19,258 nucleotides of DNA from a virus. The position numbers were made by a program, and so were the translations under genes. The stretch lies in UHGV virus genome UHGV-0045429; one strand, given 5' to 3'. The notes below the pieces were generated by a model. The model did no database searches and was not told where the DNA came from. It worked only from the letters and a program-made list of their open reading frames with translations. Position 1 is the first letter of the stretch; every line of letters starts with the position of its first letter. Below, piece by piece: positions 4,919-7,229 of the stretch.

Positions 4919-5105
4919 TGGCACGCACCATCCTGAGTAAAGATTCCGTGTGATCGAGAGCTGCCTTCTGTTGTTCGTACAGTGCCTCAAGTTCAGCTGT
5001 AAGGCGGTCGCGAAACGCAGGAACGCTTAACTGGTAAATAAAATTACTTACTGAGCTTTCCACATCAGGATCCCCGTCCGGTATAACTGGCTGTGAATTT
5101 TTCAT
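4911..5105 (-). CDS. Hypothetical small early-left protein (64 aa)
   Basis: ATG at 5105 (MKNSQPVIPDGDPD...) with a GGAGGG RBS immediately upstream; first ORF of the leftward operon. Confidence 0.55.
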   Translation of the reverse strand: MKNSQPVIPDGDPDVESSVSNFIYQLSVPAFRDRLTAELEALYEQQKAALDHTESLLRMVRANG

Positions 5106-5135
5106 AAACCCTCCGGTAAAAAGGTGCCCATCGTG

Positions 5136-5155
5136 GGAGATGGGCAAATACCACG
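5136..5155 (-). terminator. Terminator-like hairpin just upstream of the first early-left gene
   Basis: On the minus-strand transcript: GCCCATC-TCCCAC-GATGGGC followed by ACCTTTTTA (7-bp stem plus U-rich tail) immediately 5' of the RBS of the 64-aa ORF. Confidence 0.35.
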
Positions 5156-5182
5156 CGGCACACACTGCAATTAATCACATCT

Positions 5183-5246
5183 GCAAGCGCACTCCGCCTG
5201 TTTCACACCTGTCACCCATAACTGGTAAGTGAAGGAGTGCGCTTGC
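5183..5246. repeat. 13-bp perfect inverted repeat with 38-nt spacer inside the ORF-poor leader
   Basis: GCAAGCGCACTCC at 5183-5195 and its reverse complement GGAGTGCGCTTGC at 5234-5246; arms extend by a further 5 bp with a bulge. Confidence 0.5.
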
Positions 5247-5940
5247 ATGTTGTGTTCGCGGGGTCTACTTCCCTCCTGACACGGTTCTTTCCCCGCGTCA
5301 TCGTGTGTTCATTCGGTACATGAAACCCATTTGCCGGGATTCCACCGACTCCCATCTGTTTTTAAAGCCACTCAGATATCGTCTGGGCTTGCTCGTCTTT
5401 TCGAGCCGTCAGCGTTCTACTTCCCGCCGTCACTGCCGTGTTTACACAGTTGAACGTCTGCCGCTGTTCTCGGTGCTGGTACCGCCACTGTCCAGGACAT
5501 TTATAAGGGCCGTCTCCAAGTGGTAACTCTTCCAGTCCCGGTAAGAACCCTGCGAGATGCTTAGCGTGACTGGCTGTTATTCCCTGAAAAAGGCTGGCGG
5601 TTACCGGAAATACACGGGAAAACACCGGGCCGCCAAAACAGGGGGCTACTTGTTATTGCTTTGGCCTGCTTTTATCCACATCAGGCGCGGTGGTAGGTAT
5701 CTTCGGGCGGGGGCCAGTGACCAGCTGGCATCCCTACGGTACTTTTCACCGACAACCGCGGGTTAGACGGTTCCGTTTCGTCGGATAGAGCTGTCGATGC
5801 TGGTAGTCACTCCAGCCCGTAACCCCTCCCGAAGACACCTGTTTAGCGTTAAAACTTAAAATCTGTTTCCCCTTTATCGCCAGGGTAAGCGGAACAGTTT
5901 GATTCTGAGTAATCACTGCGTGTGGTTACTTGATGGAATA

Positions 5941-5996
5941 AACTTAGGTTAACTTAAGTTTTCAATCAAGATTTATTTTGTAGAAAAACCTAAGTT
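5941..5996. promoter_or_regulatory. Left operator-like region (OL analogue): inverted AACTTAGGTT / AACCTAAGTT half-sites downstream of the repressor gene
   Basis: AACTTAGGTT at 5941-5950 and its exact reverse complement AACCTAAGTT at 5987-5996. The 10-mer AAAACCTAAG (5985-5994) recurs exactly at 6521-6530 in the repressor/cro intergenic region. Confidence 0.45.
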
Positions 5997-6046
5997 TATG
6001 GGTGTAAAAACATAACTCATTGATTTTATGAGTTGAATATTTTGGT

Positions 6047-6463
6047 TTATTTTACTCGGGTTTTTCTTTTTCTCTTCTCTGCTTCTAGCAGTTCTTGCAG
6101 GCGGATGCTGTTGTTTTCGTTACGAGCGCGTAACTCTTCGAGGAAGCCGATCTGATCTGACTCGGGAAGTGAATCAAAGAGTTCTAATAACTCTAATTGA
6201 ATATCAGTTAATTCTCTTTGCTCTTCTAATGGTACCGGCGCGCCCGGAATCTGGGCCTCATCACCAAAAAGAAGCCATGCTGGCGCGCACTGCAGGCCTT
6301 TGCTAAGGGCGAACAACCTCTTTCCCGCCGGTTGAGTTTCATCGCGTTCCCACTGGGAAATAGTTACGTGTGCGACCTTTACCAGTTTGCCCAAGGCAGC
6401 CTGGGAAAGGTTTAGCTCTTTGCGTCGCCTTAAAAGACGAGTACCGAAGGTTTCTTTATCCAT
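6047..6463 (-). CDS. DicA/RacR-type prophage repressor (XRE-family HTH, no S24 peptidase domain)
   Basis: 138-aa ORF; N-terminal HTH (LNLSQAALGKLVKVAHVTISQWERDETQP), LFALSKGLQCAPAWLLFGDE and LELLELFDSLPESDQ closely parallel E. coli DicA as I recall it. No recognisable RBS before the ATG. Confidence 0.85.
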   Translation of the reverse strand: MDKETFGTRLLRRRKELNLSQAALGKLVKVAHVTISQWERDETQPAGKRLFALSKGLQCAPAWLLFGDEAQIPGAPVPLEEQRELTDIQLELLELFDSLPESDQIGFLEELRARNENNSIRLQELLEAEKRKRKTRVK

Positions 6464-6484
6464 ATTAGGTAATTCTAAATTCTC

Positions 6485-6531
6485 TTGACTTAAATTTCCC
6501 TACGATCTAGTTTCCTTAGGAAAACCTAAGG
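6485..6531 (+). promoter_or_regulatory. Right operator/promoter region (OR analogue) between divergent repressor and cro-like genes
   Basis: TTGACT at 6485-6490; perfect palindrome CCTTAGG-AAAA-CCTAAGG at 6514-6531, overlapping the AAGGAG RBS of the DicC-like gene. Confidence 0.5.
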
Positions 6532-6541
6532 AGATTTAATC

Positions 6542-6766
6542 GTGCTTAAAAAAGACGCAGTTATTTTTTTTGGAAGCAAATCAAAATTGGCAAAGGCTGC
6601 TGGTGTTGCTGCTTCATCAGTTTCTGTATGGGGCGACCTCGTGCCAGAGAAAAATGCGATGAGACTACAAATCGCTTCTGATGGTGCCCTGCGATATGAC
6701 CCCGAGGTCTATGACAAACATGCTAAAGCAAAACGGTCAGGAGAATTGAATGATGAAAATCAATGA
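6542..6766 (+). CDS. DicC/YdaS-like Cro-type regulator
   Basis: 74-aa ORF, GTG start with AAGGAG 8 nt upstream; MLKKDAVIFFGSKSKLAKAAG...GDLVPE...MRLQ...YDPEVYD closely matches E. coli DicC from memory; divergent from the repressor. Confidence 0.8.
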   Translation: MLKKDAVIFFGSKSKLAKAAGVAASSVSVWGDLVPEKNAMRLQIASDGALRYDPEVYDKHAKAKRSGELNDENQ

Positions 6767-7229
6767 GATCAAGTTACTGGCTATCGAGCTTGAAGAGTGG
6801 GCGATGAAGGATGGCAGGAAAGGGGGCTGGAAAAAGATTGTCCCACTGATTACCTCGCATCACTACGGTGATTTGCTGGATAGCCTGGCAGATATCGTGG
6901 ACCCGTCAGAGTATGTGCGCCGCCTGCATAACAACACGCAGATCATCCAGCGGGCATTTCGAAATGACACGCCGAACTATCGTGGTCAGGCAGCTGCGCT
7001 TGCGCCAGCAATCAGGGCTGCGATGGATGCAGAGCTGGCTGGTCAGCATGACTTACATAACCTGGTGGCCATTGCTAACCGCGAGTGCATCGAGGCGACC
7101 AGTGCGGTGCTGACTGGTAAGCCAATGCAGGTAATCCGCAAAGAAACGTCAGAGGCAATTCAGGCACTGGCCGATCTCATCCCCGGCGTCAGCATCCAGT
7201 TTAACCATATTGGTCCGCGCGCGGCGTAA
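6750..7229 (+). CDS. YdaT-like protein (third gene of the racR-ydaS-ydaT type immunity cluster)
   Basis: 159-aa ORF overlapping the DicC-like stop by 17 nt; AGGAG RBS; central NTQIIQRAFRNDTP...LAPAIRAAMD segment resembles the YdaT family as I recall it. Confidence 0.6.
   Translation: MMKINEIKLLAIELEEWAMKDGRKGGWKKIVPLITSHHYGDLLDSLADIVDPSEYVRRLHNNTQIIQRAFRNDTPNYRGQAAALAPAIRAAMDAELAGQHDLHNLVAIANRECIEATSAVLTGKPMQVIRKETSEAIQALADLIPGVSIQFNHIGPRAA

Follow-up and report, generated by a model that had tools for sequence, protein, structure and literature searches.

A probable lysis-lysogeny immunity switch of the DicA/P22 c2 kind in a Citrobacter lambdoid prophage

The DNA analysed here, referred to as the window, is a stretch of 19,258 nt that is part of a lambdoid prophage. 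Within the window the prophage looks complete (int, xis, exonuclease, O-like, RusA and Q-like genes are present). Integrase, excisionase and exonuclease-like genes are on its minus strand, while the plus strand encodes cro-like, YdaT/cII-like, O-like replication, RusA, methyltransferase and Q-like antiterminator genes. The features considered below (Table 1) surround a repressor gene that diverges from the cro-like gene, and the DNA on either side of it is AT-rich, with a GC content of 30-39% at 5800-6100 and 6400-6600.

Table 1. Genes, candidate operators, predicted promoters and RNA elements of the immunity region, in window positions.
Feature	Position	Strand	Sequence and context
Structured RNA element	5695-5840	minus	146 nt, sharply bounded, inside the leader of predicted PL
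Predicted PL (dicBp-like) promoter, leftward early operon	5941-5969	minus	-35 TTGATT 5969-5964, spacer 17 nt, -10 TAAGTT 5946-5941
PL-side operator 1 (candidate)	5943-5958		CTTAGG-TTAA-CTTAAG, 1 mismatch; within spacer and -10 of predicted PL
PL-side operator 2 (candidate)	5979-5994		TGTAGA-AAAA-CCTAAG; upstream of predicted PL -35
Terminator-like hairpin	6006-6034	minus	AACUCAU-AAAAUCA-AUGAGUU then AUGUUUUU; after repressor stop codon
DicA-type repressor gene	6047-6463	minus	138 aa, HTH_3 domain only
Weak site (Oa/OR3-like)	6464-6479		ATTAGG-TAAT-TCTAAA, 3 mismatches; adjoins repressor ATG, overlaps predicted repressor-promoter -10
Predicted repressor maintenance promoter	6465-6477	minus	-10 TAGAAT 6477-6472; no recognisable -35
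Predicted PR-like promoter, cro-like operon	6485-6513	plus	-35 TTGACT 6485-6490, spacer 17 nt, -10 TAGTTT 6508-6513
Weak middle site (Om/OR2-like)	6489-6504		CTTAAA-TTTC-CCTACG, 3 mismatches; overlaps cro-side promoter -35 (TTGACT)
Strong cro-side operator (candidate; equivalent of Qin Oc / P22 OR1)	6514-6531		Perfect palindrome CCTTAGG-AAAA-CCTAAGG, 0 mismatches
cro-like gene	6542-6766	plus	74 aa, GTG start, SD AAGGAG at 6528-6533

The repressor scores 177.7 bits against the NCBIfam DicA model (NF007257; cut-off 101), with residues 1-134 of 138 covered, and is 51% identical to DicA of E. coli K-12 over 130 aa. Its HTH domain (residues 1-71) shares 56% identity with the DNA-binding domain of P22 c2. 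The sole Pfam domain is HTH_3, at residues 12-64; Pfam and NCBIfam searches gave no match to Peptidase_S24, and the protein stops at 138 aa. The repressor thus lacks the C-terminal S24 peptidase and cleavage site of the LexA/lambda-cI-type SOS-cleavable class, and has instead the features of a DicA-type repressor: the model score, a short HTH protein free of an S24 domain, and a divergent partner of the DicC/P22-Cro family. Because the S24 domain is missing, induction would be expected, by analogy with DicA, to proceed via an antirepressor or another route, as has been reported for DicA and Rem (PMC10448788). An exact protein look-up returned WP_155020920.1 of Citrobacter youngae, and the dicA-annotated repressor in the phage record 'Escherichia phage Rac' is 55% identical to it.

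The cro-like protein matches Pfam P22_Cro at 61.2 bits (cut-off 30.2) and is 61% identical to DicC; with the NCBIfam DicC model it reaches 115.1 bits, slightly short of the cut-off of 130. By exact look-up this protein is also recorded from C. youngae. The Shine-Dalgarno (SD) sequence of the cro-like gene forms a duplex of -9.1 kcal/mol with the anti-SD. The cII-like gene that follows matches Pfam YdaT_toxin and the PHROG cII-like family, and a YdaT-box-like inverted repeat lies at 6746-6763, across its start codon.

A first-pass annotation of this DNA had described a perfect palindrome between the divergent repressor and cro-like genes, a 10-mer common to that region and to the DNA downstream of the repressor gene, and an exact inverted pair in the downstream DNA. 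The palindrome is present at 6514-6531, directly after the predicted PR -10, and its right arm overlaps the cro-like SD AAGGAG. The common 10-mer, AAAACCTAAG, is found at 5985-5994 and 6521-6530. PL-side operator 2 and the cro-side operator also have a 14-mer, TAGRAAAACCTAAG, in common. As for the inverted pair, the two strings are where they had been seen (AACTTAGGTT at 5941-5950 and AACCTAAGTT at 5987-5996), but they do not make up a single long-range palindrome; they are the outer half-sites of two 16-bp sites. In addition, two weak sites of the divergent region (6464-6479 and 6489-6504) were absent from the earlier list, and adding them leaves its conclusion unchanged.

The frequency of such sites was assessed with the pattern CTTAGG-N4-CCTAAG, which was drawn from the window itself, so that its first match is a given. 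In the 19 kb there are two sites with at most one mismatch (6515-6530 and 5943-5958), against 0.022 expected, and none of 1000 dinucleotide shuffles reaches two. When up to three mismatches are allowed, the total is not remarkable, with six sites against about five expected by chance; it is their clustering alone that is unusual. Five of the six fall within 5943-6530, and five sites in any 600 bp were seen in 1 of 1000 dinucleotide shuffles. In the divergent region three sites can be drawn, with centres 25-26 bp apart and two of the three weak, and on the PL side there are two. A third PL-side site near 6002-6017 (AAAAACATAA) was considered and rejected, as its TAAC is kept regardless of specificity class and lies inside the terminator-like hairpin. 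The sites are two-fold symmetric, with 6-7-bp half-sites, a 4-bp centre and a homologous HTH protein, which is the operator geometry of the P22 c2/434 type; the same geometry is found in the 11 relatives described below and in P22.

A megablast search with the immunity region (5900-6800) gave no close copy among 5,426 complete E. coli genomes, and the immunity region was likewise absent from 50,697 phage records searched with 5200-6800. Because no close nucleotide copy was obtained, the repressor protein served as the route to relatives. Eleven loci were compared: Klebsiella phage ST405-OXA48phi1.2, the E. coli PPompW prophage, K-12 Qin and eight genomes of Enterobacter, Pantoea, Erwinia, Escherichia, Citrobacter and Buttiauxella; with the window this makes 12 loci. 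In all 11 the non-coding DNA is collinear with that of the window, and a common layout emerges. On the divergent side there is a site adjoining the repressor ATG, a TTGACT-type -35 and a palindrome just before the cro start; past the repressor stop codon, the opposite strand carries a conserved -35-like box with a site on each side of it. The place of the 6514-6531 palindrome is kept in the 11 homologous loci. The TTAG...CTAA core is unchanged in the 12 loci at 6464-6479 and, as TTAG/CTAA, at 5943-5958, and for the first of these P22 also has a site at the matching position. At the position collinear with 5979-5994 P22 carries TTGAAGAAAACTTAAAT. The left half-site of 6489-6504 (CTTAGG/CTTAAG) is kept in the loci of the same specificity, and this site may act as an Om/OR2-like operator. 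Loci of the same specificity match the window at 80-86% identity over the 78-bp intergenic region, compared with only 66-69% over the repressor coding sequence.

Although the TTAG...CTAA cores are unchanged across the loci, the outermost base varies, and it does so together with the repressor. At the cro-side site and both PL-side sites the outer base gives CTAAG in six loci, the window included, and CTAAC in the other six, Qin included. This split matches helix 2 of the repressor, which reads SQ(A/S)AL(G/A)K in the one set and TQR(E/S)xA(R/K) in the other, and the recognition helix is (A/S)HVTISQ in 11 of the 12 loci and SHVSVSQ in Qin. More distant systems have other sites at equivalent places: TTGAG-AAAA-CTCAA in phage HannyBb, with a recognition helix of GSSISL, and TTTAAG-N4-CTTAAA in P22. 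Upstream and downstream sites change jointly with the repressor, which is how cognate operators should behave. The compared loci are related, and the co-variation therefore represents few independent events rather than twelve. The operator specificity predicted for the window is shared, by the same comparison, with several sequenced but unannotated prophages.

The promoters were placed by homology, because a generic sigma-70 promoter/terminator scan of 5200-6800 did not call any promoter; its single call was an unrelated terminator-like site. Each of the predicted promoters has only three of six -10 matches. The PR-like promoter is read from the sequence; its TTGACT box aligns across the loci and is also found in P22, and the scan passed over it as its 8 of 12 matches are under the tool's threshold. 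For the predicted PL, the -35 position and a TAAnnT -10 are kept in the 12 loci and are collinear with TTGACC-17-TAATCT of Qin and with P22 PL; its transcript would start near 5934. The -10 of the repressor promoter corresponds to a TAGAAT-type hexamer that is kept in all 12 loci (TAGCAT in Qin).

As the first-pass annotation had pointed out, the repressor ATG has no ribosome-binding site: the 20 nt that precede it (AGAATTTAGAATTACCTAAT) pair with the anti-SD at +0.2 kcal/mol and contain no Shine-Dalgarno sequence, whereas most other genes of the window, and neighbours with an evident SD, give about -6 to -11 kcal/mol. In E. coli, the start of dicA transcription has been placed by differential RNA-seq at 3 nt before the ATG, and dicA, racR and ymfK are among only five mRNAs whose leader is less than 10 nt long (PMC4681348, with the dicA start in Table S3). 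In the Qin sequence the mapped dicA start is the seventh base after TAGCAT; aligned with this hexamer, the window has TAGAAT, 8 nt ahead of the ATG. From the missing SD, the hexamer 8 nt upstream and the dicA start 7 nt after the equivalent hexamer, it is likely, by analogy with dicA, that the repressor mRNA is near-leaderless rather than strictly leaderless, transcription being predicted to begin 2-3 nt ahead of the ATG (6463), at A6465 or A6466. The earlier proposal of a leaderless transcript like that of lambda cI is thus upheld in kind, on grounds of homology, and amended in its strict form by the predicted 2-3-nt leader. The leader length is itself a prediction, because the -10 and the ATG are 8 nt apart here and 9 nt apart in Qin. 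The Reg-Seq study found no active dicA promoter in its mutagenised window and is uninformative on the start site (PMC7567609).

A close parallel in organisation is the dicA-dicC-dicBp region of Qin. The repressors are of the same family (about 135 aa, an HTH domain and no S24), a DicC-like cro gene is divergent from the repressor gene, and the stretch from the cro-side -10 to the cro start contains an operator-like inverted repeat. Just past the repressor stop codon, a leftward promoter, predicted in the window, has its -35 flanked by two look-alike sites. Both regions also have a TAGNAT hexamer 8-9 nt ahead of an SD-less ATG, and they share a conserved leader block on the downstream side of PL. 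In Qin, DicA binds in vivo to Oc, a 20-bp inverted repeat (TTGTTAGTCATAACTAACAA), from which it represses dicC and activates dicA, and a single base change in Oc abolishes binding (PMC3441716). Oc is the positional equivalent of window 6514-6531. When tested alone in vivo, Qin Om and Oa were not bound by DicA (PMC3441716), and the weak sites of the window therefore stay provisional. The leftward promoter just beyond dicA, dicBp, is repressed 22-fold by DicA, and three operator-like sequences have been described for each Qin intergenic region (PMC10448788). The two systems differ in their half-sites (GTTAGT/ACTAAC in Qin, CTTAGG/CCTAAG in the window) and in helix 2 (TQRSLAK and SQAALGK, respectively). 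In addition, ydfABC-dicF-dicB does not follow PL in the window, where there is instead an ORF-poor leader of about 770 nt, and Qin is annotated as a cryptic prophage, whereas the prophage of the window looks complete.

P22 immC is similar in its 6-7-bp half-sites with a 4-bp centre, in an HTH domain 56% identical to that of the window repressor, and in the collinearity of the non-coding DNA that flanks the repressor gene on either side, with a site adjoining the repressor ATG, a PR -35 of TTGACT and a PL -35 between two sites. The three-site arrangement of the P22 operators is established. P22 differs in its half-site (TTTAAG rather than CTTAGG), in the presence of nutL and the N-like gene 24 downstream of PL, neither of which was seen in the window, and in its repressor, c2, which has 216 aa and an SOS-cleaved C-terminal domain (PMC10448788) that is absent from the window repressor. 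With lambda the likeness is one of logic: the repressor gene is divergent from cro, its promoter is weak with a poor -35, its SD-less mRNA starts, in the window by prediction, at or next to the AUG, and, as for PRM, a nearby repressor-bound operator is the likely activator. However, the sites of the window have no sequence homology to the 17-bp lambda operators, a leader of 2-3 nt is predicted, against 0 in lambda, the OL-like region follows the repressor gene directly, at about 570 bp from the OR-like region rather than 2.4 kb, and the window repressor has no S24 domain. Finally, racR-ydaS-ydaT of Rac has the same gene order of repressor, divergent cro-like and YdaT/cII-like genes, and racR mRNA is leaderless (PMC4681348). 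The YdaT-box-like repeat at the start of the cII-like gene is a further point of likeness to Rac; the RacR operators differ from the sites described here.

Taken with the 177.7-bit DicA match, the P22_Cro/DicC-like partner and the collinearity of the non-coding DNA with Qin and P22 immC, which agree with the OL/OR-like layout that had been suggested for a DicA-type repressor, these data lead us to interpret the region as the lysis-lysogeny immunity switch of a Citrobacter lambdoid prophage, built like P22 immC and Qin dicA-dicC-dicBp; we put the probability of this reading at roughly 0.88. Very probably, the DicA-type repressor binds at the repeated CTTAGG/CCTAAG motifs. A working model is that a dimer of the 138-aa repressor would recognise 16-18-bp sites in which two 6-7-bp half-sites, CTTAGG and CCTAAG, enclose an A/T-rich centre of 4 bp. 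From the strong site 6514-6531, located after the -10 and ahead of the start codon of the cro-like operon, it would block rightward early transcription, and from the strong site 5943-5958, in the spacer and -10 of the leftward promoter, it would block leftward early transcription. The weaker sites (5979-5994, 6489-6504 and 6464-6479) would probably contribute cooperativity and autoregulation, and the Cro-like protein is likely to target them as well. The repressor promoter, with its -10 of TAGAAT and no -35, would probably be activated by repressor at the strong site, and its mRNA, which would start 2-3 nt before the AUG, would be translated without a Shine-Dalgarno sequence.

One alternative concerns the number of operators. 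It is possible, if somewhat doubtful, that the two strong palindromes (6514-6531 and 5943-5958) alone are operators, that the three weak look-alikes are promoter sequence or evolutionary residue and by themselves bind nothing, and that there is no lambda-style tripartite cooperative OR/OL. This would agree with the in vivo binding of Qin DicA to Oc and not to Om or Oa (PMC3441716), and with the three mismatches of each weak site, a level that is expected about five times by chance in the window; moreover, the conservation of 6464-6479 could be explained by the predicted -10 that it overlaps. Yet the weak sites are grouped next to the strong ones (a clustering reached in 1 of 1000 shuffles) and keep their TTAG/CTAA core in the 12 loci, and 5979-5994 switches from CTAAG to CTAAC along with the strong sites. 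P22 has sites at the matching positions, and single-site assays are blind to both cooperative occupancy and Cro binding.

A second alternative concerns the DNA downstream of the repressor gene, where the perfect complementarity of the inverted pair extends to 13 nt (5938-5950 with 5987-5999). The repeat might form a cruciform, or else an RNA stem at which the repressor transcript ends or is attenuated, instead of serving as protein-binding half-sites, and its arms are indeed 100% complementary, 36 nt apart and downstream of the repressor stop codon. We consider this very improbable. Homologous loci keep the half-site cores only and not the extended complementarity, so that a hairpin formed by the repeat was rejected as a candidate, and 4 bp from each arm lies a partner half-site of its own. 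Furthermore, the role of terminator is already suited by the separate compact hairpin and U-run at 6006-6034, which fits as the element that terminates the repressor transcript. That hairpin is weak and AT-rich (-7.8 kcal/mol, z = -3.85), and it was not called in the terminator scan. The least credible alternative, that the motifs are chance palindromes of AT-rich intergenic DNA with no protein-binding role, can appeal to a local GC content of 30-39%, at which short palindromes are common, but it is contradicted by the comparative data, in that 12 loci and P22 retain the positions and that there is co-variation with the repressor sequence, as well as by the two sites with at most one mismatch where 0.022 are expected and by non-coding DNA that is better conserved than the adjacent coding sequence.

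The CTTAGG sites could define a separate immunity group within the DicA/P22 c2 lineage, with discrimination by helix 2 and a DNA loop around the repressor gene. We offer this joint proposal tentatively, and think it rather unlikely to hold in full. Under it, helix 2 (SQAAL or TQRxx) would contact the outermost base pair of the half-site (C:G or G:C, respectively), while the recognition helix AHVTISQ would stay unchanged, and the small repressor might bridge operator regions about 570 bp apart by looping around its own gene.

As a regulatory system, the region is on this reading an ordinary lysogeny switch of the well-known DicA/P22 c2 kind and opens no new question. The gain is one of annotation: candidate operators, three predicted early promoters and a likely near-leaderless repressor start for a Citrobacter prophage. 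More broadly, a whole set of DicA-type prophages in Enterobacterales appears to have a single P22-like regulatory layout in common, within which at least three operator specificities occur. These prophages offer a compact natural collection in which to follow specificity changes of HTH repressors and the divergence of immunity groups.

Of more interest in this neighbourhood than the switch itself is the 146-nt RNA. The predicted leftward transcript runs for about 770 nt, from about 5934 to 5165, with no convincing ORF. The 146-nt element inside it gives a folding z of -4.1, and the leader block 5866-5936 and the module 5574-5695 gave no folding signal (z near 0). The element has no match in Rfam 15, and Rfam searches of the whole window at the gathering threshold and of 5100-6050 at E up to 5 gave nothing meaningful. 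Inspection of the PL leader and the structured RNA against HK022 putL revealed no sequence similarity. One guess is that the RNA acts in cis, in antitermination or anti-Rho. Exact copies of its 3' arm are present in 110 IMG/VR contigs, 103 of which also have the matching 5' arm. Among the 98 of the two-armed loci with enough upstream sequence, the nearest upstream ORF on the same strand is a prophage repressor, of four types, in 78, and the median distance is 184 nt. In a covariance-model alignment of 31 class-A members, 97% of cells are paired, compared with 34-50% in shifted controls, and 13 of the 42 pairs are changed on both sides. A pseudoknot pair that lies outside the covariance model also shows an exchange, from G-C to U-A.

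The leader that would follow the predicted leftward promoter (PL) contains a candidate structured RNA of 146 nt, whose sequence begins AGGUGUCUUCGGGAGGGG and ends CCCCGCCCGAAGAUACCU. The element is closed by a 13-bp stem that encloses several hairpins, and a pseudoknot is likely formed between the motifs ACGG and CCGU. The folding score is z = -4.1, and compensatory changes are present in 13 of the 42 pairs scored in an alignment of 31 members of class A, one of the element's two interior classes. There was no match to the element in Rfam 15. In IMG/VR, the two classes together account for at least 103 contigs, and further copies are found in the Salmonella phage ST64B and in one E. coli genome; in almost every case, a prophage repressor gene lies ~150-800 nt upstream on the same strand. 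It is possible that the RNA may guard the long untranslated leader against termination.

Features of the PL leader and early-right region
Feature	Position	Strand	Context
ORF-poor PL leader, ~770 nt	~5165-5934	minus	downstream of predicted PL
Conserved leader block	5866-5936	minus	first ~70 nt of predicted PL transcript
Structured RNA candidate, 146 nt	5695-5840	minus	early-left (PL) leader; folding and compensatory changes
Inverted repeat TTGAAT-GATGAA-AATCAA	6746-6763		across start codon (6750) of YdaT/cII-like gene
HNH endonuclease gene, 119 aa	7481-7840		early-right operon

No convincing ORF was found across the PL leader, and none of the early-left ORFs in the window could be recognised as an N-like gene. 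The leader has a GC content of 52-57%, compared with 30-39% in the operator regions that flank the repressor gene, and has a mosaic structure: the modules at 5332-5580, 5574-5695 and 5694-5848 each recur on their own in phages or prophages of Klebsiella, Salmonella and E. coli, nearly always without annotation. In both E. coli contexts examined, a module lies directly downstream of the repressor gene. Folding gave z = -2.9 for 5170-5580 and no signal for the module at 5574-5695.

The start of the predicted PL transcript, which reads CAUCAAG...ACUGUUCCGCUUACCCUGGCGAUAAAGGGGAAA, is kept across DicA-type loci, including K-12 Qin (where its counterpart is the ydfA leader), PPompW and phage HannyBb, even though the downstream genes differ among these loci. 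Folding of this block was not significant.

In the early-right region, the inverted repeat at the cII-like gene is a match to the YdaT-box described in the literature, which has the form ATGATT-n6-AATCAA in Rac and TTGATT-N6-AATCAA in CP-933P and covers the ydaT ATG (PMC11879457); the start codon is overlapped likewise in the window. This match suggests that the cII-like gene is autoregulated. The HNH gene is interposed between a DUF4222 gene and the O-like replication gene in the early-right operon, an unusual place for a free-standing HNH gene.
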